Shown: positions 4,165 to 25,261, numbered from the stretch's first letter. The stretch: DNA of 32,000 nucleotides from an uncultured Candidatus Saccharimonas sp. (GCA_963528875.1 CAURWT010000002.1:1-32000), one strand, 5' to 3'. Notes: generated by a model not told the origin, from the sequence alone. Numbers and translations are program-made.

Positions 4165-4172
4165 ATATTGGT

Positions 4173-7283: not shown

Positions 7284-7290
7284 GTTTTAT

Positions 7291-7299
7291 ATTATATCA
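7291..7299 (-). promoter_or_regulatory. Extended -10 promoter (TGaTATAAT on - strand) of the P-type ATPase
   Basis: Reverse complement of 7291-7299 is tgatataat; 7 nt (ataaaac) to ATG at 7283, implying a leaderless transcript. Confidence 0.5.
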
Positions 7300-7311
7300 G
7301 TTTTTTAAACA

Positions 7312-7335
7312 AGAAAAAACCCTCAAAATGAGGGA
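7312..7335 (-). terminator. Rho-independent terminator of the 233-aa orphan gene
   Basis: On the - strand: ccctca-ttt-tgaggg followed by tttttt (7320-7334 stem-loop, A-run 7313-7319 on the + strand). Confidence 0.8.
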
Positions 7336-7343
7336 GATTAAAA

Positions 7344-8042: not shown

Positions 8043-8076
8043 AAAAGTACCTCCAATATGGACTGAATAGGATAAT

Positions 8077-8105
8077 ATTGTAACATTTTTAGAATCGAGA
8101 GGCAA
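8077..8105 (-). promoter_or_regulatory. sigma70-type promoter of the 233-aa orphan gene
   Basis: - strand reads TTGCCT, 17 nt, TACAAT, with TG at -15/-14 (tgttacaat). Confidence 0.6.
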
Positions 8106-8133
8106 GAATAAGCTTTATTTTTATCATAAAATA

Positions 8134-8142
8134 TGGTAAAAT
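8134..8142 (+). promoter_or_regulatory. Extended -10 promoter (TGgTAAAAT) of the GDPD gene
   Basis: tggtaaaat at 8134-8142, divergent from the orphan-gene promoter; ATG 8158 lies 15 nt downstream. Confidence 0.45.
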
Positions 8143-8157
8143 TTGAAAATAAATATT

Positions 8158-9998: not shown

Positions 9999-10027
9999 TT
10001 GAAAAATAAGAATAATTATGATAAAAT
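9999..10027 (+). promoter_or_regulatory. sigma70-type promoter of the rplF-rplO block
   Basis: TTGAAA (9999-10004), 17 nt, TAAAAT (10022-10027), with TG at 10019-10020. Followed by a ~105-nt untranslated leader. Confidence 0.6.
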
Positions 10028-10138: not shown

Positions 10139-10675
10139 ATGAGTCGAATCGGAAAACTACCTATTGAGGTTCCGGCTGGTGTGACAATCACGATTGACGA
10201 GAACGAGATTTCAGTTAAAGGCGCTAAAGGCGAACTAACTGTGCCTCATTTGTCAGATGTAACTGTCGAACTTGACGGCACAACTTTGAAGGTTATTCGA
10301 AAAAATGACGAACGAGTAGCGCGAGCGCAACACGGCTTGCAACGAGCTCTTTTGAATAACGCTGTAGTCGGCGTCACAAAAGGCTTCGAAAAGAAATTAG
10401 AAGTTAACGGAGTTGGTTTCCGTGTACAAACTAACAATCCGCAAGAGCTTGAAATGCAACTTGGATTCTCACACCCTGTAATCTATAAAGCAAAAGAAGG
10501 AATCGCTCTTTCTAACGATAAAATGGTTATTACGGTTGCTGGAATTGACAAACAAGCTGTTGGTCAAGCTGCGGCTGAAATCCGCGCATTGAAGAAACCT
10601 GAACCATATAAAGGTAAAGGTATCAAATATGTTGATGAAGTTATCTTGCGAAAAGCAGGAAAGGCAGGTAAATAA
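10139..10675 (+). CDS. rplF: 50S ribosomal protein L6
   Basis: MSRIGKLPIEVPAGVTITIDENEISVKGAKGEL is a canonical L6 N-terminus. aaagga RBS 8 nt upstream. Confidence 0.97.
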   Translation: MSRIGKLPIEVPAGVTITIDENEISVKGAKGELTVPHLSDVTVELDGTTLKVIRKNDERVARAQHGLQRALLNNAVVGVTKGFEKKLEVNGVGFRVQTNNPQELEMQLGFSHPVIYKAKEGIALSNDKMVITVAGIDKQAVGQAAAEIRALKKPEPYKGKGIKYVDEVILRKAGKAGK

Positions 10676-11031
10676 TGTCTAAAGCATTAACACTTAAGAA
10701 GCAAAACTTAGCTTTGCGAAAAGGTCGTGTTCGAGCAAAAATTTCTGGAACTGCTGAACGCCCACGATTAACTGTAACTATTAGTAATTTGCATGTTTCA
10801 GCTCAAATTATTGACGATGTTGCACAAAAAACTCTTGTTTCAGCAACAACTGTTGGTTCAAAAGTTAAAGGAACAAAAACTGAACTTGCTGCTAAAATTG
10901 GTGCAGAAATCGCTAAAAAAGCTAAAAAAGCTAAAATTAATACAGTAGTATTTGACCGAAATGGTCGCCAATATGCAGGTCGTTTGCACGCTTTGGCAGA
11001 TGCTGCTCGTAAGGAAGGATTGGAGTTCTAA
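10675..11031 (+). CDS. rplR: 50S ribosomal protein L18
   Basis: 118 aa. RPRLTVTISNLHVSAQIIDD ... VVFDRNGRQYAGRLHALADAARKEGLEF. TAATG overlap with rplF. Confidence 0.97.
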   Translation: MSKALTLKKQNLALRKGRVRAKISGTAERPRLTVTISNLHVSAQIIDDVAQKTLVSATTVGSKVKGTKTELAAKIGAEIAKKAKKAKINTVVFDRNGRQYAGRLHALADAARKEGLEF

Positions 11032-11033
11032 AT

Positions 11034-11618
11034 ATGGCTGAAGCTCAAAAAACTCAGGCTCCACGCCGAAATAACGACCGAAACAATGGTCGAAATGGTC
11101 GAAAAAATGACCGCCGAAATAATAATCGACGCCAAGAACGCGAAGAAAAACAATTCGAAGAATTAGTGATTAACATTGACCGCGTTTCCCGTGTTGTTAA
11201 AGGTGGACGACGCTTCCGCTTTAAAGCTCTTGTTGTTGTGGGTGACCGCAAAAACAAAGTTGGTGTTGGTGTAGCTAAAGGTCAAGATGTGACTGCAGCT
11301 ATCGCTAAAGCAACAAATGTTGCAAAGAAAAACATGATTGAAATCGCGCTTGAGAGCGACACAATTCCGCATGAAGCTGAGAAAAAAGTAACTGGCGCTC
11401 ACGTTCTTTTGAAGCCTGCAGCTCCTGGTACTGGTATTATCGCTGGTGGTGTTGTTCGACAAATTATTGGTGTAACAGGAATTCGAAATATGCTTTCGAA
11501 ATCACTTGGTTCAACAAATAAAGTTAATATTGCTTACGCAACTATAGATGCTTTGAAGAGCCTTGTTCCTAAAGAACAGTGGTTAAATGCACCAAAAGCT
11601 AAAAAGGAGACTAAGTAA
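11034..11618 (+). CDS. rpsE: 30S ribosomal protein S5 with Arg/Asn-rich N-terminal extension
   Basis: Core LVINIDRVSRVVKGGRRFRFKALVVVGD is typical S5. The first ~45 aa are low complexity (RRNNDRNNGRNGRKNDRRNNNRRQ). Confidence 0.96.
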   Translation: MAEAQKTQAPRRNNDRNNGRNGRKNDRRNNNRRQEREEKQFEELVINIDRVSRVVKGGRRFRFKALVVVGDRKNKVGVGVAKGQDVTAAIAKATNVAKKNMIEIALESDTIPHEAEKKVTGAHVLLKPAAPGTGIIAGGVVRQIIGVTGIRNMLSKSLGSTNKVNIAYATIDALKSLVPKEQWLNAPKAKKETK

Positions 11619-12082
11619 TGAAATACAATGAACTCCAAGTTTCTGCAAATAAAGATAAAATTCGTGTTGGTCGCGGTATTTCAGCCGGTCGTGGTAAAAC
11701 TGCTGGTCGTGGTACTAAAGGTCAAGGAGCTCGAACAGGAAAGAAACTTCGTGCAACTTTCCAAGGTGGTCAAAATCCACTTGTTCAGGCAACTCCAAAA
11801 GCTCGTGGATTCAAGTCTTTACGAAAACCAGCTCAAGTTGTATATCTTGACCACTTGAACGATTTAGCTGGTGAAGTTGATAACTTCCGACTTTTTGAAG
11901 AAGGCTATATTTCAACACCTTTCCATAAAGTTAAGGTTATCTCACGAGGTGAATTGAACGAAAAAGTTACTTTAAAAGTTCAAGCTGCTTCGAAATCTGC
12001 CATTGAAGCTATCGAAAAGGCTGGCGGAAAATTCGAAAAAGTTGCAACACCTTTGAAGAAATCTGCAAAAGAAGAAAAATAA
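11618..12082 (+). CDS. rplO: 50S ribosomal protein L15
   Basis: GRGISAGRGKTAGRGTKGQGARTG signature. Starts by TAATG overlap directly on the rpsE stop, so there is no L30 gene between S5 and L15. Confidence 0.96.
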   Translation: MKYNELQVSANKDKIRVGRGISAGRGKTAGRGTKGQGARTGKKLRATFQGGQNPLVQATPKARGFKSLRKPAQVVYLDHLNDLAGEVDNFRLFEEGYISTPFHKVKVISRGELNEKVTLKVQAASKSAIEAIEKAGGKFEKVATPLKKSAKEEK

Positions 12083-12099
12083 TTCTTCTTGAAGTATTT

Positions 12100-12125
12100 A
12101 AAACAGCTCAAAACGAGCTGTTTTA
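12100..12125 (+). terminator. Rho-independent terminator after rplO
   Basis: cagctc (12104-12109) / gagctg (12115-12120), 5-nt loop, flanking A/T extension and tttt tail. Confidence 0.8.
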
Positions 12126-12151
12126 GTTTTAGATAAAAATACTTAAAACTG

Positions 12152-12166
12152 TTTTTTTTTTTTTTT
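12152..12166 (+). repeat. T15 homopolymer tract in the ABC-2 promoter region
   Basis: 15 consecutive T at 12152-12166, ending 11 nt upstream of the -10 hexamer. Confidence 0.9.
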
Positions 12167-12174
12167 GATTTTTG

Positions 12175-12183
12175 TGCTAAACT
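12175..12183 (+). promoter_or_regulatory. Extended -10 promoter (TGcTAAACT) of the ABC-2 transporter operon
   Basis: tgctaaact at 12175-12183; 6 nt (atatat) to ATG 12190, implying a leaderless transcript. Confidence 0.5.
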
Positions 12184-12189
12184 ATATAT

Positions 12190-13113
12190 ATGACAGATAA
12201 AGATATAATTTTAATAAAGAACTTTAAGCTGTCGTTTGGTAATAAAGAAATTATTCGCGGGCTAAGTTTTAATGTTAAAAAGGGCGAAATTTTTGGTTTT
12301 TTAGGATCAAACGGAAGTGGAAAAACAACAACAATTCGAGCTTTGCTGGGAATTTATCAGGCAGATTCGGGTGAACTTTTAATTAATGGTGAAGAATTTT
12401 CGCCCGAAAAAGTTGGTGCGATTGGATATTTACCAGAGGAGCGCGGTCTTTATAAAAAAGAAAAAGTTATTGATGTGATGCAATATTTTGGGCGACTTAA
12501 AGGTCTTTCAAAAAAAGAAGCTCAAGAGTTCTCTAAAAAATATTTGAAACGTGTTGGACTAGAAGATAAGGCAAACTTAAATATTGATAAACTTTCTGGT
12601 GGCCAACAGCAAAAAATCCAGTTAGGAATTACTATTATGGGTAAACCTGAACTACTTATCTTGGATGAGCCAACAAAAGGTTTCGATCCTGTTAATCGCC
12701 AGCTTCTTATGGATATTATCGAGGAAGAAAATGCTCGTGGCGCCACAATTATGATGGTAACTCACCAAATGGAAGAAGTTGAGAAAATTTGTAACCGTGC
12801 ATTGCTTTTAAAAAATGGTAAAATGGAAGCTTACGGCACGGTTGATGAAATTCGAAATAAATTTGGTAAACAGCGAATTATTCTTGAATTTGTTGGTGAG
12901 CTGCCAAAGAGCGATAAATTTGAGATTATAAAAAAAGAAGCAAACTATGCCGAACTCTCATTAAAAGCCGATTCACAAGAAATTCTGAAAGAATTAGTTT
13001 CAAAAAATCTGCAAATTATAAACTTTAAGGTTCAAAAATCAACTTTAAATGAGATTTTCTTGAATATTTATGGCGAAGAAAATGAAGTGGAAAATGAGGT
13101 AAAAAATGTATAA
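12190..13113 (+). CDS. ABC-2-type transporter ATP-binding protein
   Basis: 307 aa. Walker A GSNGSGKTT, signature LSGGQQQK, Walker B LLILDEPT, H-loop MVTHQ, plus a ~80-aa C-terminal extension as in NatA/DUF4162-type ATPases. Confidence 0.9.
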   Translation: MTDKDIILIKNFKLSFGNKEIIRGLSFNVKKGEIFGFLGSNGSGKTTTIRALLGIYQADSGELLINGEEFSPEKVGAIGYLPEERGLYKKEKVIDVMQYFGRLKGLSKKEAQEFSKKYLKRVGLEDKANLNIDKLSGGQQQKIQLGITIMGKPELLILDEPTKGFDPVNRQLLMDIIEEENARGATIMMVTHQMEEVEKICNRALLLKNGKMEAYGTVDEIRNKFGKQRIILEFVGELPKSDKFEIIKKEANYAELSLKADSQEILKELVSKNLQIINFKVQKSTLNEIFLNIYGEENEVENEVKNV

Positions 13114-14347
13114 TCTAGGAACAGTTTTAAGGTTCGAAATCTTCCGTGCATTGAAAAAGCCAACTTTTTGGATTGCGATTTTTGCAATTCCTGTAATTTA
13201 TGGCGTAATGTTTATGTTTGGCGCAATTTCAGGCTCACAAGCGAAGGAGAATCAAGAAAAATTAGCAAAAGAGAGTTTTTCGTTCCAGGTTCAAGATGAA
13301 AGCGGCTTAATCTCTAAGGAGCTTGTTTTACAATTAAAAGGCAGTTTTTCGAATGATAAGCAAAAGGCAATCGAAGCCGTAAAAAATGGAAAACTTAGTG
13401 CATTTTATTTTATACCAAAAGATTTAACCGGTGAAAAGATTGAAATTTATGGAAAAAATACTAATATCAATGAAAACGGCAAATATTCAGCGGTTTTAAA
13501 AACTATTTTGAAGAATTCTGGCGTTCAAGCTACGAATAAAAATCAGTTAGCGTTGATCAATGAAACTTATAAAACTGAGCAAACATTTTTCAAAAATGGT
13601 GAAAAGTATAACCAATTCCCAGAAATGATTGTGCCGGGAATTTTCTTAGCGATATTCTACTTTATTACCGTTTTTCTTTCAAACCGAATGCTTACAAGCA
13701 CAACTGAAGAAAAAGAAAACCGTGTTACAGAGATGATTTTAACCAGTATTTCAGCTAAAACTTTAATTTTAGGTAAAATTATTTCAATTATGGTTTTGGG
13801 GCTCGTTCAAATTTTAACAATAATTCTACCAATTGTCATTGGACTTATAATAATTTCAAGTATTGGAACGCTTGCAAAAGATTTAAATTTACCAGATTTA
13901 ATGCCAATTATCTCGGCTATTAAATGGGATTTTGGTACAATTGCAATTTCTGCTGTAATTTTAGTTGCTGGATTTATGATGACAACAGGATTTATCGTTG
14001 CGCTGGGTTCGGCAATGCCGACCGCACAAGAGGCTTCAAATTATTTTGCAGCAATTATTATGCCACTAATGATGCCACTTTTTGTGCTTCCTTCATTCCT
14101 TTCAAGCGAGCCGAGCGCCTTAACTGTTTTCTTGAGCTACTTCCCGCTAACTTCACCAATTTCCCTGCTTCTTCGAAACACATTGGGGACTTTGAGCTTG
14201 GCAGAAGCTCTTATTGGAATCTCACTTCTTGTCATTTTTGCGATTTTTGCCGTATGGCTAGCGGTGCGAATCTTCCGCTTTGGAACAATTTCTTATGGTT
14301 CAAAAGTAAATCTTAAAAGTATTTTTTCGAAAAAGAAAATTGCTTAA
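13106..14347 (+). CDS. ABC-2 family permease (NatB-like)
   Basis: 413 aa. One N-terminal TM helix, a ~150-aa soluble loop, then 5-6 TM helices. 8-nt overlap (atgtataa) with the ATPase gene; GAGG RBS. Confidence 0.8.
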   Translation: MYNLGTVLRFEIFRALKKPTFWIAIFAIPVIYGVMFMFGAISGSQAKENQEKLAKESFSFQVQDESGLISKELVLQLKGSFSNDKQKAIEAVKNGKLSAFYFIPKDLTGEKIEIYGKNTNINENGKYSAVLKTILKNSGVQATNKNQLALINETYKTEQTFFKNGEKYNQFPEMIVPGIFLAIFYFITVFLSNRMLTSTTEEKENRVTEMILTSISAKTLILGKIISIMVLGLVQILTIILPIVIGLIIISSIGTLAKDLNLPDLMPIISAIKWDFGTIAISAVILVAGFMMTTGFIVALGSAMPTAQEASNYFAAIIMPLMMPLFVLPSFLSSEPSALTVFLSYFPLTSPISLLLRNTLGTLSLAEALIGISLLVIFAIFAVWLAVRIFRFGTISYGSKVNLKSIFSKKKIA

Positions 14348-14366
14348 ATTAGCTTAAAAAAATTAA

Positions 14367-14408
14367 CAAGAGCTGTTCGAAAAAGAATAGCTCTTGACTT
14401 TTATTTTA
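14367..14408 (+). terminator. Rho-independent terminator after the ABC-2 permease
   Basis: caagagct (14367-14374) / agctcttg (14389-14396), 14-nt loop, then acttttatttt. Confidence 0.75.
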
Positions 14409-14422
14409 AAAAGTTGTATAAT
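14394..14422 (+). promoter_or_regulatory. Near-consensus sigma70 promoter of the 108-aa orphan gene
   Basis: TTGACT (14394-14399), 17 nt, TATAAT (14417-14422). The -35 overlaps the 3' arm of the preceding terminator. Confidence 0.6.
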
Positions 14423-14440
14423 TTAAAAGACTTTCGAATC

Positions 14441-14465
14441 AAAAAAATTTTTTTTTGGGGGGGGG
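14441..14465 (+). repeat. Compound homopolymer block A7-T9-G9 in the 5' UTR of the orphan gene
   Basis: aaaaaaa (14441-14447), ttttttttt (14448-14456), ggggggggg (14457-14465). Ends 9 nt before ATG 14475. It is the only G run longer than 5 that I saw in the window. Confidence 0.9.
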
Positions 14466-14474
14466 TAGAACCTT

Positions 14475-14801
14475 ATGAGATTTAGCAAGGATGCTTTAAG
14501 AAAGATATTTGAAGAGTCTTTCGATGATGAAGTTGATAATATCCACAACGGAGGGCATACAGTATCTTTTTATGGTGAAGAATATTCAATGGAATATAAC
14601 TTTCTACGGGGAGATATAACTTTTAGTGGAATAGATGAGAGCAGAATTGGGACTATTTTTATAGTTGAGTCTAATATCTCCTCTTACGAAGTCGATCCGT
14701 CAAGCCCTTTCGGCTATTATGTTGGGCTTTTTGAGGTTAATCTTAGAAGGCATATAGAGTTAAGCCAAAAGAAAACTCGTCGTAGATTTATCACAAAATA
14801 A
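14475..14801 (+). CDS. hypothetical protein, 108 aa, acidic N-terminal part and basic tail
   Basis: Stand-alone unit with its own promoter, a G-rich putative SD and its own terminator. No recognisable motif. Codon usage differs from neighbours (AGA/AGG and ATA frequent, no CGA). Confidence 0.6.
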   Translation: MRFSKDALRKIFEESFDDEVDNIHNGGHTVSFYGEEYSMEYNFLRGDITFSGIDESRIGTIFIVESNISSYEVDPSSPFGYYVGLFEVNLRRHIELSQKKTRRRFITK

Positions 14802-14812
14802 TTTCTCATTTC

Positions 14813-14840
14813 AAGCCCCATTTCGGGGCTTTTCTTTTTT
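14813..14840 (+). terminator. Rho-independent terminator of the orphan gene
   Basis: aagcccc (14813-14819) / ggggctt (14825-14831), loop atttc, then ttctttttt. Confidence 0.85.
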
Positions 14841-14877
14841 CGAAAAAATAAATTTTCAGGATTTTTTAAGTAAAGCG

Positions 14878-14886
14878 TGATAAAAT
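14878..14886 (+). promoter_or_regulatory. Extended -10 promoter (TGaTAAAAT) of the two-component operon
   Basis: tgataaaat at 14878-14886; 6 nt (aaaaat) to ATG 14893, implying a leaderless transcript. Confidence 0.5.
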
Positions 14887-14892
14887 AAAAAT

Positions 14893-15564
14893 ATGAGAAT
14901 TTTGATTGTTGAAGATGAACGGAAAATTGCTCGAGCACTCGGGCAAGCTTTGAAAAATGAAAAATATGCCGTGGACATTTCGCACGATGGGACAGATGCC
15001 TACGCGATGGTTGGAATGATTGACTATGATTTATTAATCCTTGATCGGATGATCCCGGGCGATTATGACGGTTTAAGCTTAACTAAAAAGCTCCGCGAAG
15101 AAGGTAAAAGAGTGCCAATTTTACTTTTAACGGCATTGGGTGAAATTCAAGATAAAACCGAGGGTTTAGATAGTGGCGCAGACGATTATTTAACGAAACC
15201 TTTCGCTTTAGATGAGCTTTTAGCACGTGTTCGAGCGTTGCTTCGAAGGCCGCAAACCCAAGCTGAAACTATTCTAAAAATCGCAGATCTATCATTAGAT
15301 TTAAATGCGCACGAAGTTTTTCGAAATAATCAAAAAATCGAACTTACAAATAAAGAATTTTCACTTCTCGAATATTTAGTGCGAAATGCTGGCCGCCCAG
15401 TTTCGAAAGAGCAAATTATTGCCCATGTTTGGGATTATGATGCAGATATTTTGCCGAATAATATTGAAGTTTATATCAGTTATTTGCGTGAAAAAGTTGA
15501 TAAGCCTTTTGAGAAAAAACTAATCAAAACCGTGCGAGGAATAGGATATAAAATTGATGAATAA
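14893..15564 (+). CDS. OmpR/PhoB-family response regulator
   Basis: 223 aa. Receiver domain (MRILIVEDE ... LLILDRMIPG phospho-Asp region ... DDYLTKPF) plus a winged-helix output domain (LTNKEFSLLEYL ... VRGIGYKI). Confidence 0.93.
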   Translation: MRILIVEDERKIARALGQALKNEKYAVDISHDGTDAYAMVGMIDYDLLILDRMIPGDYDGLSLTKKLREEGKRVPILLLTALGEIQDKTEGLDSGADDYLTKPFALDELLARVRALLRRPQTQAETILKIADLSLDLNAHEVFRNNQKIELTNKEFSLLEYLVRNAGRPVSKEQIIAHVWDYDADILPNNIEVYISYLREKVDKPFEKKLIKTVRGIGYKIDE

Positions 15565-16609
15565 TAAAGAGCAAAAATTATTTAAATTCGGTGGCGATAT
15601 TTTTAAAAGTGCTCATTTTAGCCTTTCGATGCTGTATTTCTTGATTTTGCTAGCGATTGTTGGAATTTTTAATATTGTAATTTTTTATTCGATCAACACT
15701 AATACTATGGAAATTTCCACACCACTCATTGAAACAAGTTTTTCGAAAGACAAAAATAGCTATGGAACGGATGAGCTTCGCGAAAAAATTATCACGGCAA
15801 GAAACAAACGAGCTAGCGAACAGATTACCGAATCAATTCTAATTTTAGATTTTTTAATTTTATTGGCTGGCGGTATTGGTAGTTTTTGGCTGGCGCGCCG
15901 TGCTTTAGAACCTCTTGAAAAAGCTCACAAATTACAGTCTGAATTTGTTTCGAATGCGAGCCACGAAATTCGAACGCCACTTGCGGCGATCCAGCTTGAA
16001 ACTGAAATAATTCTAAAAGATAAAACAGCTTCAAATGATGAGCTCCGCGAAGTTCTGGAGAGCAACTTAGAAGAAGCAAAAAGCTTAACTGCGATGGTGA
16101 AAATGCTGCTTAGTCTTTCGAAAATTAACGAAGAAATTCCACTTTCAGCTGTGAATTTGAACGAAACTATCAAAGCTAGAATTTCAAAATTTCCAGATGC
16201 GGAAAAGAAAATTAAGTTCGAAGATGGCAAGGAATTTATTGTTCAAAATAACGAAACGGCAATTGATGAAATTGCTATGATTTTGATTGATAATGCGCTG
16301 AAATATAATGTTTCGAAAGATCCGATTGAAGTGAAAATTTTTAGGCAAAATCGACAAGCTGTCTTATCTGTCTCGAATTTTTCGAATGAAATTCCGCAAG
16401 ATGAACTAAATAAATTTTTTGATCGATTTTATAGATGTGATAAAGTCCGAAGTTGCAATAACCACACGGAAGGCTATGGTTTGGGGCTTGCAATTGCAAA
16501 AAAGCTGGCGGAAGAAACGCATAGCGTAATTTTAGCTAAAAATGAGAGAATTCCGAAAACTAAAAAATTCAAAACTACATTTTCAGTTTTAATGCGATTT
16601 TCAAGATAG
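15557..16609 (+). CDS. sensor histidine kinase (HisKA/HATPase_c), two TM helices with short external loop
   Basis: H-box FVSNASHEIRTPL, N-box LIDNALKYN, G2-like GYGLGLAIAKKLAE. ATG 15557 (TTG 15554 also possible) overlaps the regulator stop. Confidence 0.88.
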   Translation: MNNKEQKLFKFGGDIFKSAHFSLSMLYFLILLAIVGIFNIVIFYSINTNTMEISTPLIETSFSKDKNSYGTDELREKIITARNKRASEQITESILILDFLILLAGGIGSFWLARRALEPLEKAHKLQSEFVSNASHEIRTPLAAIQLETEIILKDKTASNDELREVLESNLEEAKSLTAMVKMLLSLSKINEEIPLSAVNLNETIKARISKFPDAEKKIKFEDGKEFIVQNNETAIDEIAMILIDNALKYNVSKDPIEVKIFRQNRQAVLSVSNFSNEIPQDELNKFFDRFYRCDKVRSCNNHTEGYGLGLAIAKKLAEETHSVILAKNERIPKTKKFKTTFSVLMRFSR

Positions 16610-16627
16610 TTTTTTTGATTAAAACTC

Positions 16628-16656
16628 TTGATTTTTAAAGATATTTGTGCTAGAAT
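16628..16656 (+). promoter_or_regulatory. sigma70-type promoter of the rplC-rpsH block
   Basis: TTGATT (16628-16633), 17 nt, TAGAAT (16651-16656), with TG at 16648-16649. Confidence 0.65.
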
Positions 16657-16801
16657 AATTGGTGAACTTTATTTACGTAAATATAAAACTTGGCCATGCG
16701 AGGGTCGTAACAGGGAAAACCCGCTTTCGAAACCACGCGAACGCCAAGCTTTAATCGTGGAAAGTTTAACTAATATTAAATTAATTGGGAGCATAAGTGA
16801 A
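16657..16801 (+). promoter_or_regulatory. ~140-nt 5' leader of rplC containing a GC-rich, potentially structured element
   Basis: 16690-16747 (ttggccatgcgagggtcgtaacagggaaaacccgctttcgaaaccacgcgaacgccaa) is ~57% GC in an AT-rich spacer. ttggc/gccaa and gcg/cgc can close an imperfect long stem, with an internal ggg-aaaa-ccc hairpin (hand-folded only). Confidence 0.4.
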
Positions 16802-17416
16802 ATGAAAACACTTCTCGGTACCAAAATTGGTATGACCCAAATCATCGGTGAAGACGGCGTTGTTACACCAATTACGCTCGTTCAAGCCGGCCCTGTAACT
16901 GTGACTCAGGTTAAAACCGTTGAAACAGACGGCTACAACGCAGTTCAAGTGGCATTTGGTGAGGGTAAGAACCTGAGCAAGGCCGTGGCTGGACATGTAA
17001 AACCAGCAGAGGCAACTCCGAAGCATCTTCGTGAGTTCCGCGTTGACGAAATTCCTGCGGATATAAAAGTTGGCGCTAAAATTAATGTTGAAGCTTTCGA
17101 GCTTGGAGACATTGTTGATGTAACTGGAACAAGCAAAGGTAAAGGTTTTGCTGGAACAGTTAAGCGACACAACTTTAACACAAGCAAGAGTTCGCACGGT
17201 GGAAACGGAAACGTGCGTCGTGTTGGGTCAATCGGCTCAATGTATCCACAAAAAGTCTTCAAAGGTAAAAGAATGCCTGGACGAATGGGTCACGACAAAG
17301 TTACTGTTAAAAATCTAACAGTTGCTTACATCGATGCAGAAAATAACTTAATTGGGCTAAAAGGTGCTGTACCAGGACCAAAGAAGGGTCTTATCAGCAT
17401 TGGAGGTAAAGCATAA
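16802..17416 (+). CDS. rplC: 50S ribosomal protein L3
   Basis: MKTLLGTKIGMTQIIGEDGVVTPITLV is a canonical L3 N-terminus. GGGAG RBS upstream of ATG 16802. The 58 upstream codons of the ORF track cover the promoter and leader. Confidence 0.96.
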   Translation: MKTLLGTKIGMTQIIGEDGVVTPITLVQAGPVTVTQVKTVETDGYNAVQVAFGEGKNLSKAVAGHVKPAEATPKHLREFRVDEIPADIKVGAKINVEAFELGDIVDVTGTSKGKGFAGTVKRHNFNTSKSSHGGNGNVRRVGSIGSMYPQKVFKGKRMPGRMGHDKVTVKNLTVAYIDAENNLIGLKGAVPGPKKGLISIGGKA

Positions 17417-18003
17417 TGGCTGAAAAAACAACTCTTCCAAAAAGCGTTTTTGCAGTTGAAGTTCGAAATCATGAACTATTAAAGCTTGCCTATGACGCTT
17501 ATCTTGCTAACAACCGCTTGGCAAGTGCTACAACAAAACAACGCGGTGAAGTTCGTGGTGGTGGTAAAAAACCATGGCGACAAAAAGGAACTGGTCGCGC
17601 ACGATTTGGATCAATTCGAAACCCAATCTGGCGAGGCGGTGGTATTGTTTTTGGACCACGCGGTAACGAAAACTATACTAAAAAGATTTCGAAAACTTCA
17701 AAACGAGTTGCTCTTCGACAAGCTTTGACAGTTCAAGCTGAAAAAGTTCTTGTTGCAGAAATTAAAACAACTGGTAAAACTGCTGAAGTTGCAAAATTCT
17801 TAAAAGAGAATAATTTGGATCGACGAGTTCTTATCGTTGCTGAAAAAACAGACGAACTTATCCGTGCAACCAATAATATCAGTGAAGCTCTACTTGTTTC
17901 GCCAATGTATCTAAACGTATTTGACATTTTGAATGCAGATCACATTGTTATTGTGCCAAAAGCAATCGAAACAATCGAAAACTGGTTAGGAGGAGAAAAA
18001 TAA
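17416..18003 (+). CDS. rplD: 50S ribosomal protein L4
   Basis: RGGGKKPWRQKGTGRARFGSIRNPIWRGGGIVFGP signature; TAATG overlap. Confidence 0.97.
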   Translation: MAEKTTLPKSVFAVEVRNHELLKLAYDAYLANNRLASATTKQRGEVRGGGKKPWRQKGTGRARFGSIRNPIWRGGGIVFGPRGNENYTKKISKTSKRVALRQALTVQAEKVLVAEIKTTGKTAEVAKFLKENNLDRRVLIVAEKTDELIRATNNISEALLVSPMYLNVFDILNADHIVIVPKAIETIENWLGGEK

Positions 18004-18338
18004 TGGCGATCAAACCTATTACTCCACGAGCGACTGAGAAAGCTTATGCTCTTTCTACAACAAAAAATGTTTACGTATTTAATGTACCGCTAACTTTGAA
18101 TAAGAATCAAATCAAAGAAGCGATTGAAAAAGAGTTTGAAGTAACTGTAACTGGCGTTCGAACTGTTGTTCAAGCTGGTAAAACTAAACGAATCAACAAA
18201 TCTCGAAATCCAAAACGATATGTTGCAGGTTTAACAACTCAAAAAGATATTAAGAAAGCTTATGTAACCGTAAAAGAAGGTGATAAGATTGCAATCTTCG
18301 AAGGTACTGAAGCTGAAACTGCTGAGGAGAAGAAGTAA
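18003..18338 (+). CDS. rplW: 50S ribosomal protein L23
   Basis: 111 aa. Position between L4 and L2; ATEKAY...VYVFNV...IKKAYVTVKEGDKI pattern; AGGAGG RBS. Confidence 0.93.
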   Translation: MAIKPITPRATEKAYALSTTKNVYVFNVPLTLNKNQIKEAIEKEFEVTVTGVRTVVQAGKTKRINKSRNPKRYVAGLTTQKDIKKAYVTVKEGDKIAIFEGTEAETAEEKK

Positions 18339-19183
18339 TGGCTATTAAAAAATACAACCCTACGACTCCTGCTCGACGCGGTATGACGACTGAAGACTAT
18401 AGTGAAATTACAACTCGAAAACCGCTAAAAAGTCTTCTTAAAGCGAAAAAGCAAAACGCTGGACGCAATAACTCTGGTCGAATTACGGTTCGACACCGAG
18501 GTGGTGGTGTTAAACGACATTACCGAATCTTAACTCACAAATTGCCAACAGGTTTGACTTTGACTGTTCGAGAAATTGAATACGATCCAAACCGAAGTGC
18601 GCGAATTGCTCGAGTTCAAGATCAAGATGGTAAATTCTACTATGTATTGGCTGATACATCAATGTTCCAAGGTAAAGTTTTCCAAACTGGTAAAAAAGAT
18701 ATTGAAATTGAAGCTTCAAACCGAATGCCACTTTCAGAAATTCCTGTTGGTTCATTGATTTACGCAATCGAAATCACACCAGGAAAAGGTGCGCAAATGG
18801 TTCGTTCAGCCGGAGCTAAAGCTCAGTTGATGGCGAAAGAAGGTGACTACGCTCAGGTAAAATTACCTTCAGGTGAAGTTCGAAAATTCCGATTGGAAGC
18901 AGAAGCAACTCTTGGAACAGTTGGAAATATTCAGCATCAAAACGTTAAACTTGGTTCTGCTGGTCGAAATCGCCGTAAAGGTATTCGCCCAACAGTTCGT
19001 GGTGTTGTTATGAATGCTGTAGATCACCCACATGGTGGTGGTGACGGCGGACGACACGGAATCGGTCGCTCAACTCCACGCACACCTTGGGGTCAACCAA
19101 CTCTCGGCTACAAAACTCGCCGACGTAAGAGTACTAATAAATTTATCGTGAAGAGTCGTCACGAAGCTAAGAGGAGAAAATAA
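18338..19183 (+). CDS. rplB: 50S ribosomal protein L2
   Basis: GRNNSGRITVRHRGGGVKRHYR and MNAVDHPHGGGDGG motifs. Confidence 0.98.
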   Translation: MAIKKYNPTTPARRGMTTEDYSEITTRKPLKSLLKAKKQNAGRNNSGRITVRHRGGGVKRHYRILTHKLPTGLTLTVREIEYDPNRSARIARVQDQDGKFYYVLADTSMFQGKVFQTGKKDIEIEASNRMPLSEIPVGSLIYAIEITPGKGAQMVRSAGAKAQLMAKEGDYAQVKLPSGEVRKFRLEAEATLGTVGNIQHQNVKLGSAGRNRRKGIRPTVRGVVMNAVDHPHGGGDGGRHGIGRSTPRTPWGQPTLGYKTRRRKSTNKFIVKSRHEAKRRK

Positions 19184-19450
19184 ATGAGTCGTTCATTGAA
19201 AAAAGGTCCGTTTATCGACTTCAAGCTTGCTAAAAAAGTAGCGGCTCTTGGAGCAGATGATCGAACAGTGATTAAAACTTGGGCTCGCTCAAGCACAATT
19301 ACACCAGAAATGGTTGGTCGAACTATCGCTGTTCACAATGGTCGTTTACATATTCCTGTATATATTTCAGAGAATATGGTCGGACACAAACTTGGTGAAT
19401 TTGCGCCAACACGTAAATTCCGAAAACACGGCGGAAAGGATAAGAAATAA
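19184..19450 (+). CDS. rpsS: 30S ribosomal protein S19
   Basis: [12 protein letters not shown] ... [17 protein letters not shown]; AGGAG RBS. Confidence 0.98.
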
Positions 19451-19866
19451 TGGCTAATGTAACAACTCGTGCCTATATCAAAGGTATTGGTCAGACTCCA
19501 CGAAAAGTTTCAATCGTGGCAAGTCTTGTTCGTGGTCGAACTGTTGCTGATGCATTAGTAATTCTTGACCACACTCCACGCCGAAGTGCCTTGGCTGTTA
19601 AAAAAGCTATTCAATCAGCTGCAGCTAATGCAAAAAACAATGATAATGCTGATCCAAAAACTCTTGTAATCACAACTTTGTCGGTTACTGCTGGATCGCG
19701 ATTGAAGCGATTTAAACCTCATATGCGAGGAATGGCGCTTCCTTTCCAAAAGAAAACTTCAAACATTTTGGTCGAAGTTTCTGGCGTTGTTAAAGAGAAG
19801 AAAGCTCCAGCTAAAAAAGCTGAAGTTAAGAAAACTACTGCGAAAGCAGAGAAAGAGAGCAAATAA
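19450..19866 (+). CDS. rplV: 50S ribosomal protein L22 with Lys/Ala-rich C-terminal tail
   Basis: RAYIKGIGQTPRKVSIVASLVRGRTVADALVIL, typical L22. Tail is KEKKAPAKKAEVKKTTAKAEKESK. Confidence 0.96.
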   Translation: MANVTTRAYIKGIGQTPRKVSIVASLVRGRTVADALVILDHTPRRSALAVKKAIQSAAANAKNNDNADPKTLVITTLSVTAGSRLKRFKPHMRGMALPFQKKTSNILVEVSGVVKEKKAPAKKAEVKKTTAKAEKESK

Positions 19867-20501
19867 TGGGTCAAAAAGTTAATCCAATTAGCTTCCGTTT
19901 GCAAGCTCATAAAAACTGGGATTCACGATGGTTTGCTCAGAAAAAAGATTTTGCAAAATTCTTGATTGAAGATGACAAAATTCGAAAAACTATCGAAAAA
20001 CGATTCGAAAGTCGACCAACAATTGATCGAATCGAAATTGAACGAACAGAAAACCTTATCACTGTTTCAATTCATACAGCAAAAGCTGGTGTTGTAATTG
20101 GTCGCGGTGGCGCTGGCGTTCAAGAACTTAAAACTCAACTTGAAAAAATGGTGAGTTTACCGGTTCGAATTAATATTGAAGAAGTTCGCCGACCAGAGCT
20201 TTCGGCCAAATTGGTTGCTGAAAATATTGCTAGACAATTGGAACGACGAATCAACTTCCGCCGAGCCGTTAAAATGGCGTTACAAAATACAATGCAAGCA
20301 GGCGCAAAAGGTGTTCGTATTGAGGTTGCTGGACGGTTGAATGGAGCTGAAATGAGCCGCCGTGAGAAATTCTCTGAAGGATCTGTTCCTCTTCATACAA
20401 TTCGCGCAGATATCAACTATCACGGAGCACGTTCGCAAACTCCTGCTGGTATTATCGGCGTAAAAGTTTGGATTAATAAAGGTGAAAGGAACGATAAGTA
20501 A
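19866..20501 (+). CDS. rpsC: 30S ribosomal protein S3
   Basis: [12 protein letters not shown] ... KH-domain [11 protein letters not shown] ... [11 protein letters not shown]. Confidence 0.98.
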
Positions 20502-20920
20502 TGGCTATTTTATTACCAAAGAAAACCGCTCACCGAAAAGTTCGAAAAGGTAAAAATCCAGGCCGAGCAACTCGTGGAAACACTGTTGCCTTCGGTGACT
20601 ATGGATTGGTTAGCCTTGAGAACGAGCGAATCAACTCGCGACAAATCGAATCAGCCCGAACAGCTATGACTCGTTATATTAAGCGTGGAGGTCAGGTTTG
20701 GATTCGAATATTCCCGCACACACCAGTTACTCGAAAACCGCAAGATGTGAAAATGGGTAGCGGTAAGGGAAACCCAGAATTCTTTGTGGCTAAAGTTAAA
20801 GCTGGAACAGTCATGTTCGAAATGAACGGTGTTTCAGAAGAAGTTGCACGCGAAGCTATGCGACTTGCTGGCCACAAACTTCCAGTAAAAGTTAAATTCG
20901 TAAAGAAAGGTGAAATCTAA
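20501..20920 (+). CDS. rplP: 50S ribosomal protein L16
   Basis: RKVRKGK ... [21 protein letters not shown] ... [22 protein letters not shown]. Confidence 0.97.
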
Positions 20921-20921
20921 T

Positions 20922-21191
20922 ATGGCGACTACATTGACAGGTGTTGTTTCGAGCGCTAAAGCCGACAAAACTATCACCGTAACAGTTCATAGCCGTGAAA
21001 CACACCCAATTTACGGCAAGCAATATACTGTAACTCGAAAATATACTGCTCATGATGAAAACAATGAAGCTGGTGAAGGTGACAAAGTTATCATCAAAGA
21101 AGTTCGACCAATTTCGAAAACTAAGAGTTTTGCTTTAGTTGAAATTGTTGAGAAAGCTCGAGGTTCAGTAGAATTGAAAGAGGAGGCATAA
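20922..21191 (+). CDS. rpsQ: 30S ribosomal protein S17
   Basis: [18 protein letters not shown] ... [34 protein letters not shown] 20922 lies 1 nt after the rplP stop (GTG 20910 is the alternative). There is no room for rpmC between L16 and S17. Confidence 0.95.
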
Positions 21192-21559
21192 TGATTCAGC
21201 AAGAAAGCCGACTTAAAGTAACAGATAACAGTGGTGCAAAAGAGATCCTTTGTATTCGTGTACTAGGTGGTTCAAAACGCCGATATGCACGAGTTGGTGA
21301 TATCATTGTCGCTACCGTTAAAGATGCTAACCCAACTGGTAACATTAAGAAAAAATCAGTTGTGAAAGCCGTTGTTGTGCGAACTCGCGACCAAATTCGT
21401 CGAAAAGATGGTTCAACTATTTGTTTCGATGATAATGCGGCCGTAATTATCGCCGACGACAAAACTCCAAAAGCGACTCGCGTATTTGGTCCAGTACCAC
21501 GCGAACTTCGTGACTTAGGATACAACAAAATTATCAGCTTAGCTCCGGAGGTGCTCTAA
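21191..21559 (+). CDS. rplN: 50S ribosomal protein L14
   Basis: [27 protein letters not shown], canonical L14. Confidence 0.98.
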
Positions 21560-21560
21560 T

Positions 21561-21824
21561 ATGGCGTTAAATGGAATTGTTAAGGGTGATAATGTTGTAA
21601 TTATCAGCGGAAAAGATAAAGGTGTTACTGGTGAAGTTGTAAAAGTTTTACCAAAGAAAAATGCTGTTTTGGTTGAAGGCGTTGGCAAAAAACATCGCCA
21701 CATCAAACCAAATCAATTCAATCCGCGCGGTGGAGTAAAAGACATTCATGTTCCAACTCCAGTTCATAAAGTTAAAAAAGTAGAAGCTAAAAGCGCTAAA
21801 TCAAGCAAAAAAGGAGATAAATAA
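21561..21824 (+). CDS. rplX: 50S ribosomal protein L24
   Basis: KOW motif GDNVVIISGKDKGVTGEVVKV; GGAGG RBS. Confidence 0.95.
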   Translation: MALNGIVKGDNVVIISGKDKGVTGEVVKVLPKKNAVLVEGVGKKHRHIKPNQFNPRGGVKDIHVPTPVHKVKKVEAKSAKSSKKGDK

Positions 21825-22402
21825 TGGCTAAAACTACTGTTTATGTTCCTCGCTTGAAAACTCTTTACAAAGATAAAATTGCTAAAGAACTCCAAAGCGA
21901 ACTAGAGCTAACAAATATCCACCAAGTTCCAAAGCTTGAAAAAATCGTTGTTAGCGTAGGAACAGGTAAGAAAAAGGAAGACAAACGTTTTCAAGAAGTT
22001 GTAAAAAATACAATTACAAAAATCACTGGTCAAGTTCCAGTAGAACGTTTACCTAAAAAATCAATTGCGACCTTTAAAATTCGTGGTGGAATGGGTGCCC
22101 CAATTGGCCATAGTGTAACTTTGCGTGGTGATCGAATGTATGAATTTCTTGATCGCCTAGTAAATGTAGCTTTGCCTCGCGTGCGTGACTTCCATGGTGT
22201 TGGAGCAAAAGGTTTCGATAAAGGTGGAAATTACAATTTGGGAATTTTAGAACAATCTGTTTTCCCAGAGCTAACTTTTGAAGAAACTCAAATTCTTCAC
22301 GGTTTGCAGGTAACTTTCGTAATCAAAAACGAAGGTGAAGCTCACAGTCGAGCATTGCTTGAAAAATTCGGAATTCCATTTGAAAAGAAAGGAAAAGCGT
22401 AA
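21824..22402 (+). CDS. rplE: 50S ribosomal protein L5
   Basis: [16 protein letters not shown] ... [16 protein letters not shown] ... [19 protein letters not shown]. Confidence 0.97.
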
Positions 22403-22671
22403 TGGCTAAAAAATCAATGATTGCAAAAGACTTGAAACGCAAAAAAATGATTGAAAAATATGCTGCAAAACGCGCCGAATTGAAAGCTGCTGGCGACCAA
22501 GAAGGTCTTCAAAAGCTTCCACGCAACTCAAGTCCTACACGACTTAAAAACCGCGACAATTTTGATGGTCGACCACGCGGTTATATGCGACGATTTGGTA
22601 TGAGCCGAATCACTTTCCGCATTAAAGCCTCAAAGGGTGAAATCCCAGGCGTAACAAAAAGTAGTTGGTAG
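22402..22671 (+). CDS. rpsN: 30S ribosomal protein S14 (long, Cys-free form)
   Basis: [20 protein letters not shown] ... [20 protein letters not shown]. 89 aa, no CxxC zinc motif. Confidence 0.95.
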
Positions 22672-22686
22672 AAGGAAGGAGAGACT

Positions 22687-23088
22687 ATGTCATTACAATC
22701 AACTGACCCAATCGCCGACCTTCTAACTCGCATTCGAAATGCGGCAATGGTTGGCAAGAACGAAATTCGCGTTCCTTCAAGCAAATTGAAAGAAGTTGTA
22801 GCGAAAGAGCTTGCAAAAGCTAACTATATTGAATCTGTTGAAGTTGAATCAGCAAAACCTCGCGATATCTTGGTGGTTAAAATCACAAAAGAAGGTGAAG
22901 CTGCTCGCTTTAATGAATTAACTCGAATGAGTAAACCAGGACGCCGAATGTATGTTGGCGTAGAAGAAATCCCACGCGTTAAAAGTGGTCGTGGAATGGT
23001 TCTACTTTCAACATCAAAAGGTGTTATGAATGGTTTCGAAGCCAAGAAACAACGACTCGGCGGTGAACTATTGCTAAAAGTTTGGTAA
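22687..23088 (+). CDS. rpsH: 30S ribosomal protein S8
   Basis: TDPIADLLTRIRNA signature; AAGGAG RBS. Confidence 0.97.
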   Translation: MSLQSTDPIADLLTRIRNAAMVGKNEIRVPSSKLKEVVAKELAKANYIESVEVESAKPRDILVVKITKEGEAARFNELTRMSKPGRRMYVGVEEIPRVKSGRGMVLLSTSKGVMNGFEAKKQRLGGELLLKVW

Positions 23089-23106: not shown

Positions 23107-23150
23107 ACAATAAAAAATAAGCTTTTTACTGAGAGCTTATTTTTTATTGT
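23107..23150. terminator. Bidirectional terminator between rpsH and the convergent GH15 gene
   Basis: Perfect 17-bp inverted repeat: acaataaaaaataagct (23107-23123) / agcttattttttattgt (23134-23150), 10-nt loop, with T-runs on both strands. Confidence 0.85.
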
Positions 23151-23295
23151 ATATTATCTTTTTTTACTATAGACAGATTATTTCAGAAAACAACCTTTGG
23201 TAAAAAGTAGCTCTTTAAGGAGTTAACTAGGTATTTGTAAACGTAAATTTCGCCAGGTTTTTGAAACTATTAGCACTAATAATTATGGGTCTTTT

Positions 23296-25260
23296 TTATT
23301 CTTCTTCAAAAGCGACTAAATCTAATAAAGCTGAAACATATTCTGCTTGAGACCAAGTTAGCGGCGCAACCGAAAGATGCTTTAAATTACGTGGATCAAT
23401 CTGTTCAGGTAAAATTCCCGTTGAAGTTTGTTGCTTTAGAACCCATTTGATAATTTCCTCCGCTTTCGAAATTTCACCAAGAGCAATATAAAATTCTGCA
23501 CGCCAAAGTGTCGTTATCGGCCAAATATTTGCTTCGTAATCATCGCCAAATTTATAGTAAATATCATTTTCGAATCTTGGAAGCCCAATATTATCATTAG
23601 CTTTAAAACGATTTTCAAGAGTTTTAAAAGCAGTCTGTAATTTTTCACCTTTAAATTCAAAAAGGTTAAACATAAATGCACCATAAAAACTTGATGAATC
23701 AATTTTTGGGTCTTTATTGCCATCAGCCCAAATTCCACGATAGAAGTAATTACTTTCTTCATTAAAAAGCTCGTTTTGTGCAGCAGAACGAATTTTTAAA
23801 GCTTGCTCGCCCCATTTTTTTGCATCATGCACGCGATTTGCAGCTTGAGCTAATTTTGAAGCAGAGTATAATGCCGCAAAAACAACCGAAGTCGAATAAG
23901 TTGTTGAAAGAAAATCCATCTCCCAAAGCTCATAATTTGGTTTTGGTAAATCATTTTCACCACAAAAATCTACTAAAAAATTAGCAGTCGGCTTCACCAA
24001 ATCATCATAAAATTCATTCAAAATTGAGTTCTCACGAAATTTTTTATAATATTGAGCAAATAAGAAAAGTATTCCTGCGGTTTCATCAATCTGAATAGGT
24101 AGATTTCGAGTATCGCCACCTTGTGAATATGGGTGCCAGCTTGGACCAAGTTCACCATTCGGTAAATATTTATGCATCATAAATCCTCCCAAAGTTAACG
24201 ATCTTTTGCAAAATTCAAAAAACTTTTGAGGTTCATCACGATAGCCAATACGAATCAATGGCCAAATTGCAAAAAGAGCATCACGAGGCCAGCAATAAGA
24301 ATAATCGTCTCGCGCATAATTTAACATTTCACTATCATTACTAGCAATTGGTGCACCAGTTTTCGCAAGATGAGATTTAACTAGCATTAAACTTTGAATA
24401 AAACTTTTTTGATATTTTGAATCAAGTTTTTTTGAAACTCGTAAAGCAGGTGAGAGCCATTTTTGCCAATATTTTTTGGTCTCATTTAAAGCTTTCGAAA
24501 AGCCATTATCTCTAACCTTTTGAAGATTTGTACGAGCAAGCTCGTGGTCATCGGCGCAAGAAATTGAGTATTGAAAATTTGCATTATCAAAAATACCAAG
24601 ATAAAAATTAAACCCAACAACCGAATCGGTCTGTCCATGCTCAACATTTGAGCCCGAAAGAATGCCATCTTCCGCATCGACCCAAGAGCCAAGCTTATTT
24701 TCAATCCCAAACAAGCCAACCGTATGCTGGTCAAAATCTTCAAAAATATTCTGAAGAGGTTTTTCGAAAACTCTTTGAGCAGAAATAATGAAAGCACGTT
24801 TTCCGCGATAGTGCAAAATCGCCTTTTCATTATTTTCGAAAGGCAAGAATTGAACGGTATCGGCCAAGTGAAAACTGCTGTTAATTGCAAAATTTTGATG
24901 CAAAAAAAGCTGAACTTCACGCGGGTAATTTGCAAGATTTTGAACTTGGATTTTTCGCCCAAAAACATCAAAATCACTCACTATAAAATCGGTGAAAGTT
25001 ATTTTAATTTGAAGCTCTTGATTAATAGCTTCAGTTTTTGAGATTAAGGCATTTTCAAAATATTCAACCGAAAATCGCCACTCACCAGAATTGAGCCAAG
25101 AAAAATTATTGCCAATTTTAATTCCGACGCGATGAAAAAGGTCGCGGCCAAGTGTATGATTTTCATAACCGTTATCTGGAAAATAAAAATCGCTCACTAG
25201 ACCAAATTCATTTAACCCGATATTTAAATTACCATTGCTTAAAATTGCTGTTTTTGCCAT
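23296..25260 (-). CDS. glycoside hydrolase family 15 (glucoamylase/glucodextranase-like)
   Basis: 654 aa. N-terminal beta-rich domain plus a catalytic (alpha/alpha)6-type region with YSYCWPRDALF (GH15 WxRD motif) and LPEQIDP. Confidence 0.85.
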   Translation of the reverse strand: MAKTAILSNGNLNIGLNEFGLVSDFYFPDNGYENHTLGRDLFHRVGIKIGNNFSWLNSGEWRFSVEYFENALISKTEAINQELQIKITFTDFIVSDFDVFGRKIQVQNLANYPREVQLFLHQNFAINSSFHLADTVQFLPFENNEKAILHYRGKRAFIISAQRVFEKPLQNIFEDFDQHTVGLFGIENKLGSWVDAEDGILSGSNVEHGQTDSVVGFNFYLGIFDNANFQYSISCADDHELARTNLQKVRDNGFSKALNETKKYWQKWLSPALRVSKKLDSKYQKSFIQSLMLVKSHLAKTGAPIASNDSEMLNYARDDYSYCWPRDALFAIWPLIRIGYRDEPQKFFEFCKRSLTLGGFMMHKYLPNGELGPSWHPYSQGGDTRNLPIQIDETAGILFLFAQYYKKFRENSILNEFYDDLVKPTANFLVDFCGENDLPKPNYELWEMDFLSTTYSTSVVFAALYSASKLAQAANRVHDAKKWGEQALKIRSAAQNELFNEESNYFYRGIWADGNKDPKIDSSSFYGAFMFNLFEFKGEKLQTAFKTLENRFKANDNIGLPRFENDIYYKFGDDYEANIWPITTLWRAEFYIALGEISKAEEIIKWVLKQQTSTGILPEQIDPRNLKHLSVAPLTWSQAEYVSALLDLVAFEEE

Positions 25261-25261
25261 T

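Follow-up and report, generated by a model that had tools for sequence, protein, structure and literature searches.

Organization of the locus and identity of the host

The S10-spc cluster of ribosomal-protein genes is the textbook case of an arrangement kept fixed by co-transcription, translational coupling and feedback control. The cluster is examined here in a 32,000-nucleotide stretch (the window) from an uncultured Candidatus Saccharimonas sp. (GCA_963528875.1 CAURWT010000002.1:1-32000), in which it occurs as two cassettes on the same strand, with L6-L18-S5-L15 (10139-12082) located 4.7 kb 5' of L3...S8 (16802-23088). Between L6 and the end of S8, which comes after it, there are 12.9 kb, and rplF is not found directly 3' of rpsH. 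The L3...S8 cassette is contiguous and in canonical order, comprising 14 genes with L29 alone missing. As an earlier sequence-only reading had noted, L3 is not preceded by S10, and L15 is followed by a terminator and an ABC transporter rather than by secY-adk-map-infA; tblastn returned no match to S10, L30 or SecY anywhere in the window. NCBIfam equivalog models bear out all the genes which that reading named. The same reading assigned to each half a promoter, leader and terminator of its own, and these are present at the positions it proposed and are conserved in relatives. The principal features are listed below; compared loci are denoted by L and three digits, and R1 and R2 are covariance models of the rplC and rplF leaders, respectively.

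9999-10027, + strand: promoter-like site of the L6 cassette, TTGAAA-17-TAAAAT with TG extension; near-identical layout in L068, 93% conserved in L091
10040-10126, + strand: predicted rplF 5' leader RNA (R2), with core UGCGAGUGAAAU..GGAGAUUUUGCGC, a variable hairpin and AGCAC..CACUC; 82 bits, E ~4e-16
10139-12082, + strand: rplF-rplR-rpsE-rplO (L6, L18, S5, L15; without L30), all four above NCBIfam equivalog cut-offs
10139-10675, + strand: L6 (NCBIfam equivalog)
10675-11031, + strand: L18 (NCBIfam equivalog)
11034-11618, + strand: S5 (NCBIfam equivalog)
11618-12082, + strand: L15 (NCBIfam equivalog)
12098-12126, + strand: terminator-like hairpin 3' of rplO, followed by a T-run to ~12167
16628-16656, + strand: promoter-like site of the L3 cassette, TTGATT-17-TAGAAT with TG extension
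16685-16752, + strand: rplC 5' leader, probably divergent within the rplC-leader family of Saccharibacteria (R1); top R1 match in the window, 11.2 bits, E 0.26
16802-23088, + strand: rplC-rplD-rplW-rplB-rpsS-rplV-rpsC-rplP-rpsQ-rplN-rplX-rplE-rpsN-rpsH, 14 genes (NCBIfam equivalog)
16802-17416, + strand: L3, rplC (NCBIfam equivalog)
23107-23150, no strand assigned: AT-rich hairpin terminator 3' of rpsH; homology to L091 extends across the hairpin as far as 23151

The host is a tiny, Nanogingivalis-like oral Saccharibacterium of the candidate phyla radiation (CPR). The best 80 L3 loci among GTDB species representatives are nearly all labelled Saccharibacteria, a few being unlabelled or labelled Nomurabacteria or Patescibacteria, and the P-type ATPase has a counterpart at 97% identity labelled Candidatus Nanogingivalis. 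Traits of CPR membership in the window include the absence of uL30 and the coincidence of the S5 end (11618) with the start of L15. Because the window sits on a long branch, the L3-based phylogeny lacked close relatives, which were found only via searches with the ABC ATPase, the P-type ATPase and GH15, proteins that evolve faster.

The probability that this arrangement reflects a chimeric or misassembled contig is considered virtually nil. Such errors are an a priori risk of metagenome-assembled genomes (MAGs), and one relative (L001) has a chimeric contig start and a frameshift; however, the window's junctions recur in more than 15 contigs from differing samples and assemblers, at 89-100% nucleotide identity. 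Independent assemblies share the window's gene order at 89-97% nucleotide identity. Two MAG contigs of other studies are 95-97% identical to the window and colinear with it, and one contig of another study (L002) spans window positions 6797-27419. The junctions between L15 and the ABC gene and between the histidine kinase gene and L3 recur in three further sequences: a 374-kb scaffold, L093 (an 88-kb scaffold) and L095 (a GenBank MAG contig). The former junction is present in L002, L093 and L095. The junction between S8 and GH15 is found in at least 15 metagenome contigs, including L098-L105, L117, L123, L126, L128, L130 and L132. Since independent assemblies share these junctions, chimeric assembly is excluded, and the arrangement described by the sequence-only reading is real.

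In L001 (GTDB representative contig CALIMO010000104.1), an ABC gene with two ATPase domains occupies the L15 position. Its interpretation as a polymorphic breakpoint was rejected, as the contig start (1-250) is probably chimeric via the ABC Walker-A motif; the ABC ATPase gene also carries a frameshift at ~900. All of the 120 best ABC ATPase homologues are single-domain proteins of 305 +/- 10 aa.

Exchange of two blocks and recurrent breakpoints

The two cassettes belong to larger co-oriented blocks, designated A (ABC-TCS-L3..S8, ~11 kb, where TCS is the two-component system) and B (abhydrolase..GDPD-L6..L15, ~12 kb). Their remaining parts and the adjoining flank are as follows.

321-9915, + strand: non-ribosomal part of block B, with abhydrolase, trpS, rluD-like, holB, TPR protein, P-type ATPase (-), hypothetical (-) and membrane GDPD genes (NCBIfam, Pfam)
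12190-16609, + strand: 5' part of block A, with ABC ATPase, ABC-2 permease, hypothetical 108-aa gene, OmpR-type response regulator and histidine kinase
23296-28585, - strand: constant right flank R, with GH15, GH57, GT4 and YgjP-like genes, convergent to rpsH

In the lineage of the window (W), the order is queA(-), an LPXTG gene, block B, block A and GH15(-). In lineage S1 (L088; 89% nucleotide identity), L33-S10-...-queA(-) is followed directly by ABC-TCS-L3...S8, and the ABC-TCS genes (12190-16609) thus adjoin the L3 cassette in S1 as they do in W. In lineage S2 (L091/L092; 93% identity in ribosomal-protein genes), S8 is followed after a 101-nt gap by abhydrolase-trpS-rluD-holB-TPR-P-ATPase(-)-hyp(-)-GDPD-h420(-) and then by the rplF promoter, leader and start, which places L6 ~11 kb downstream of S8. 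The non-ribosomal genes of block B therefore sit between S8 and L6 in L091/L092 and accompany the L6 cassette. T2 contigs, which are related to S2, carry L6-L18-S5-L15, a PIF1/YqaJ/NUMOD gene or a prophage, h96(-), L33 and GH15(-). Taken together, the sister lineages S1, S2 and T2 give the arrangement A-B, whereas the window has B-A, and the difference between W and S2 amounts to an exchange of adjacent co-oriented blocks. The sequence-only reading had described the window as a cyclic permutation of the ribosomal-protein operon. This order is real and permuted relative to S2, in which S8 is upstream of L6, but the units that moved are blocks of 11-12 kb that include 5-8 non-ribosomal genes.

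All three breakpoints are intergenic and lie just outside terminators or promoters. Breakpoint 2 falls within window positions 12083-12151, after the rplO terminator, with homology to S1 (L088) starting at 12152, and breakpoint 3 falls within 23152-23295, after the rpsH terminator; the remaining one is located upstream of position 303. The order A-B is probably ancestral and B-A derived, because all other Saccharibacteria with both cassettes have L6 downstream of S8.

The left edge of flank R is a recurrent rearrangement breakpoint. Across related lineages, GH15 is bordered there by S8, by L33-h96 in either orientation or by MucBP, making four different neighbours, and prophage genes are found at block edges; the region is therefore prone to rearrangement. 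A prophage encoding a tyrosine integrase, an Amidase_5 endolysin and a tape measure protein is situated beside h96-rpmG (L33) in L110 (13141-21568), L107, L111, L115, L118, L127 and L134, and in L088 (973-1845). L33 stays on the prophage side in two genomic contexts, as if carried along. In L108 (13434-16097) and L109, an 887-aa fusion of a PIF1-like helicase, a YqaJ recombinase and a NUMOD/I-HmuI-like nuclease is encoded between rplO and h96-L33. Furthermore, the gene for a 1624-aa MucBP/SdrD_B adhesin lies between the TPR and P-type ATPase genes in some strains and beside GH15 in others (L093 12464-17338; L094; L103, L113, L116).

Age of the cuts and the signals of each cassette

The cuts that separate the cassettes are old and common in Saccharibacteria, and the Nanogingivalis-like lineage adds a block swap to them. 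Among the 80 Saccharibacteria species loci surveyed, S10 is never directly joined to L3 (0/80), being separated from it by 203-4742 nt or lying more than 10 kb away; even genomes with an otherwise 'canonical' layout have a reverse-strand gene between S10 and L3. The junction of S8 and L6, informative in 57 species, is interrupted in 36 of them (~63%). The two genes are contiguous (18-200 nt) in 21 species and separated by an insert of 0.75-3.5 kb in 17, and in 16 no L6 is found within at least 2.9 kb. A concatenated ribosomal-protein tree distributes the interrupted state over several separate clades. Across the same survey, L6 upstream of L3 was encountered in the window's species alone. The suggestion that the cut arose together with the permutation is contradicted by these distributions and by the sister lineage in which S8 and L6 are already 11 kb apart.

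The genes found between S8 and L6 are heterogeneous and unrelated across lineages, 63 of the 92 ORFs being singletons. Because they vary even inside one genus, this junction is regarded as an insertion hot spot. Short forms of the separation also occur: in L008 and L040, the gap of ~350-370 nt already contains a terminator, a promoter and a leader, and in L008 the end of S8, a small ORF, the terminator, the promoter, the leader and L6 are all accommodated within 345 nt. ORFs of ~35-40 aa between rpsH and rplF, predicted to encode a hydrophobic peptide with a lysine-rich tail, are found in several environmental Saccharibacteria (L005, L011, L012, L034; L008 13014-13139). In L096 (2425-3135), a more distant relative whose L6 is 85% identical, the gene after rplO is not secY but an undecaprenyl-diphosphatase-like one, recognized by eye from its EWLPVSSTGH motif, which implies that the break between L15 and secY also predates the swap.

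Independent transcription of the two cassettes is supported by comparing genomes. As a class, promoter-like matches are not enriched in this AT-rich window (39 versus 31.8 +/- 5.6 in shuffles), and the two promoter sites are credited because they are conserved in relatives, not because of the scan. Of 77 loci, 61 carry a promoter motif 5' of the L3 leader, compared with 11% of random windows. The rpsH hairpin is kept in S2, where in L091 a co-directional abhydrolase gene comes next, and this terminator is ancestral to the S8 cassette. No terminator was predicted between the histidine kinase gene and the rplC promoter.

The region 5' of rplC has a common architecture in nearly all loci, consisting of a strong promoter, a small palindromic hairpin, an irregular ~55-nt hairpin and a Shine-Dalgarno sequence. 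The ~55-nt hairpin features a P1 stem (CUUGGUG/CACCAAG), a P2 stem and RGUC...GAAACY. The R1 model, with its structure obtained by RNAalifold, gives exactly one match per locus, 5' of rplC, in 47 loci (E 1e-18 to 1e-7). Paired cells account for 93.8% in this family, whereas shuffles reach 82% and slid controls 36-56%; compensatory changes are observed in 12 of 15 pairs. The family thus has the predicted properties of a cis-regulatory leader RNA: its structure is conserved, its pairs change in a compensatory manner, and it occupies the 5' UTR of ribosomal-protein operons. In a gut-clade Saccharibacterium (L074 241-337), a 5S rRNA gene lies directly 5' of the rplC promoter and leader.

The second leader, R2, is found 5' of rplF and nowhere else, in the window and 12 other loci representing at least six lineages. 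It occurs only at loci with non-contiguous S8 and L6, always just before rplF, and recurs in all lineages whose L6 has a long leader of its own. In every one of the 13 cases its variable segment folds into a hairpin, and the stems represent at least eight distinct sequences.

The two uncatalogued leaders constitute the most novel element of this analysis. Comparison of both with Rfam 15 families gave no match, even at E = 10, and in the literature no paper was found that describes either leader or the split between S8 and L6; we know of no leader in front of rplF. Both may serve as binding sites for one of the encoded ribosomal proteins, in a putative autogenous control. A role as 5S rRNA mimics was rejected, since local alignment z-scores were below 3 and mostly ~0 and the Rfam scans contained no 5S match. 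An apparent ATGCGAG...TTTCGAAA motif shared by the two window leaders was likewise discarded as a post hoc pattern present in neither family consensus; the TTTCGAAA of the L6 leader sits in a lineage-specific hairpin and is altered in L002.

Origin of the arrangement and comparison with known systems

It is proposed that the S10-spc cluster of Saccharibacteria, rather than forming one super-operon, is divided into three autonomous cassettes, namely rpsJ by itself, rplC-rpsH and rplF-rplO, each with its own promoter, structured 5' leader and terminator. Because such cassettes are self-sufficient, DNA could be inserted between them and the cassettes themselves could be moved without breaking expression. 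On this reading, the ancestor of the window's lineage already carried ~10 kb of unrelated genes between S8 and L6, and the adjacent blocks A and B then traded places in that lineage. The combined reading, in which modular leader-equipped cassettes are typical of Saccharibacteria and a block swap took place in a Nanogingivalis-like lineage, is held with good, though not full, confidence.

Several observations weigh against it. The rplC leader of the window has the family architecture and the expected place yet scores weakly with R1 (11.2 bits, E 0.26), and R1 gave no matches in the sister Nanogingivalis loci. The R2 stems P1 and P2 display invariant positions or one-sided changes and no compensatory ones, their sequence being too conserved. 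Promoters and terminators were called as matches to a consensus, and the S1, S2 and T2 maps each combine separate contigs with 93-94% identity instead of representing a single closed genome. In addition, S8 also adjoins GH15 in L126, whose right flank is 96% identical to that of T2 and whose spacer at this junction is unrelated to that of the window, which renders the polarity of the change uncertain.

The last point bears on an alternative in which B-A is the ancestral order of the genus and the S8..L6 order of the sister lineages is secondary. In its favour, W-type junctions between S8 and GH15 are present in several lineages, including L126 with its T2-like right flank. It is nevertheless judged improbable, as L6 is downstream of S8 in all other Saccharibacteria showing both cassettes and the unrelated spacers of W and L126 suggest separate events. 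The sequence-only reading had suggested a tandem duplication followed by reciprocal loss. Applied to the present blocks, which are larger than had been assumed, this would convert A-B into B-A if the first copy of A and the second copy of B were lost. Relative to S2, the change has the form of an exchange of adjacent co-oriented blocks, and the junction compositions are as this route predicts, with 25 nt kept on the queA side and the L15 terminator joined to the last 38 nt 5' of the ABC gene. However, no pseudogene remnants were found at the junctions, and no duplicated intermediate was seen among ~60 related contigs. Direct translocation predicts identical junctions, so that duplication-loss and direct or element-mediated translocation are inseparable on this evidence, and duplication-loss is considered rather unlikely. 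Recombination through a mobile element, either the prophage integrase or the PIF1/YqaJ/NUMOD helicase-recombinase-nuclease gene, may instead have moved one block, a possibility entertained tentatively. A prophage or the PIF1-YqaJ-NUMOD gene is positioned exactly between L15 and h96-L33-GH15 in sister lineages, an integrase also adjoins h96-L33 in S1, and the left edge of GH15 has its four different neighbours; the association is positional only, though, and the window has neither a mobile-element gene nor a recognizable att repeat at its junctions.

Compared with the canonical S10-spc-alpha arrangement of E. coli and B. subtilis, the cassettes retain the internal orders L3-L4-L23-L2-S19-L22-S3-L16-(L29)-S17-L14-L24-L5-S14-S8 and L6-L18-S5-(L30)-L15, together with tight gene packing and overlapping stop and start codons. 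They differ in that S10 is 24 kb from L3, the L6 cassette is upstream, L29 and L30 are absent, and secY-infA-alpha is detached. Separation of the str, S10, spc and alpha operons by multigene insertions has been described in Gammaproteobacteria and Bacilli (Brandis et al., PMC6735719, PMC8046335). In those systems, insertions and rearrangements likewise occur at transcription-unit boundaries and leave the units intact, whereas the boundaries observed here (S10|L3 and S8|L6) fall inside single E. coli operons, and the order of the units has changed, not only their spacing. Autogenous ribosomal-protein leaders, such as the E. coli S10 leader bound by L4 and the spc site bound by S8 (Fu et al., PMC3616713), share with the present ones a structured RNA in the 5' UTR of the first gene, and the rplC leader shows covariation as well. 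Unlike them, the Saccharibacteria leaders bear no resemblance to Rfam 15 families, and the rplC leader comes after S10, not before it.

The reduced ribosomal-protein sets of CPR bacteria, as treated by Tsurumaki et al. 2022 (PMC9297842) and by Brown et al. 2015 as cited there, share with the window the loss of uL30, the adjoining of S5 and L15, and the lack of uL29 from its slot. In contrast, what those studies report is gene loss, and not operon fragmentation or cassette reordering.

More speculatively, and with slightly less than even confidence, Saccharibacteria may have replaced the single S10-spc super-operon by modules, each with an undescribed autoregulatory leader (rplC, rplF), and this modularity may permit both spacing and reordering. 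In Saccharibacteria the S10-spc order has been broken time and again at two recurring points, and its parts can be rearranged, which makes possible a direct test of whether contiguity is needed for correct ribosomal-protein stoichiometry or per-module leaders suffice. Both leader RNAs are concrete candidates for RNA-protein feedback circuits that would be new for CPR bacteria. In practical terms, split or reordered blocks in these lineages will confront phylogenomic and binning methods designed around one syntenic ribosomal-protein block per contig.

Beyond the window, S10 was located ~24 kb upstream of L3 (L081 1713-2027). L33-S10 lies ~7.7 kb before the window and S12-S7 ~7 kb after it (16 kb 3' of S8), all on the same strand. 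In a relative with 86% identity across the L33-S10 region, the segment secY-sortase-infA-S13-S11-S4-rpoA-L17-L13-S9 is situated ~3.3 kb upstream of L33-S10; this secY-alpha segment was not seen upstream of L33-S10 in two relatives that are 92% identical. With secY-alpha positioned from that relative, the co-oriented order would be secY-alpha, S10, L6-L15, L3-S8 and S12-S7, nearly the reverse of the canonical order of units. Approximately 7 kb past the window (L085 1832-2724), rpsL-rpsG is followed by a TMEM175-like gene and not by fusA-tuf, which indicates that the str operon is also truncated.

L29 is absent between L16 (ends 20920) and S17 (starts 20922; window 20501-21191), and an L29 HMM found nothing in ~52 kb of the window's genome or within +/-10 kb in an L29-less gut clade. 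All CPR bacteria have in common that uL30 is absent (Brown et al. 2015, cited in PMC9297842), and lineage-specific loss of uL29 in CPR has been published, in complete genomes for some Peregrinibacteria (Tsurumaki et al. 2022, PMC9297842). The rpmC gene is also missing between L16 and S17 (gap of at most 9 nt) in a gut/rumen clade of Saccharibacteria comprising L029, L037, L041, L043-L046, L048-L050, L052, L064, L065, L074 and L079, and the losses in this clade and in the window's species are apparently independent.

Among the individual genes, S5 (11034-11618) is ~37 aa longer at its N-terminus than the bacterial model, whose match begins at residue 38, and the ABC ATPase of the 12190-16801 cassette is similar to the second ATPase domain of the ribosome-associated RbbA. 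Remnants of block A were sought between queA and the abhydrolase gene and rejected, as the 1.2 kb there encodes an LPXTG/PAPTP-repeat protein. The window begins (1-200) inside a gene for a surface protein that has a PAPTP-repeat region and an LPxTG-like anchor (LPETG). The PAPTP-repeat gene, also seen in L081 (9075-9850), contains an N-gap within the repeat in the public scaffold, and the copy number of the repeat varies between assemblies.

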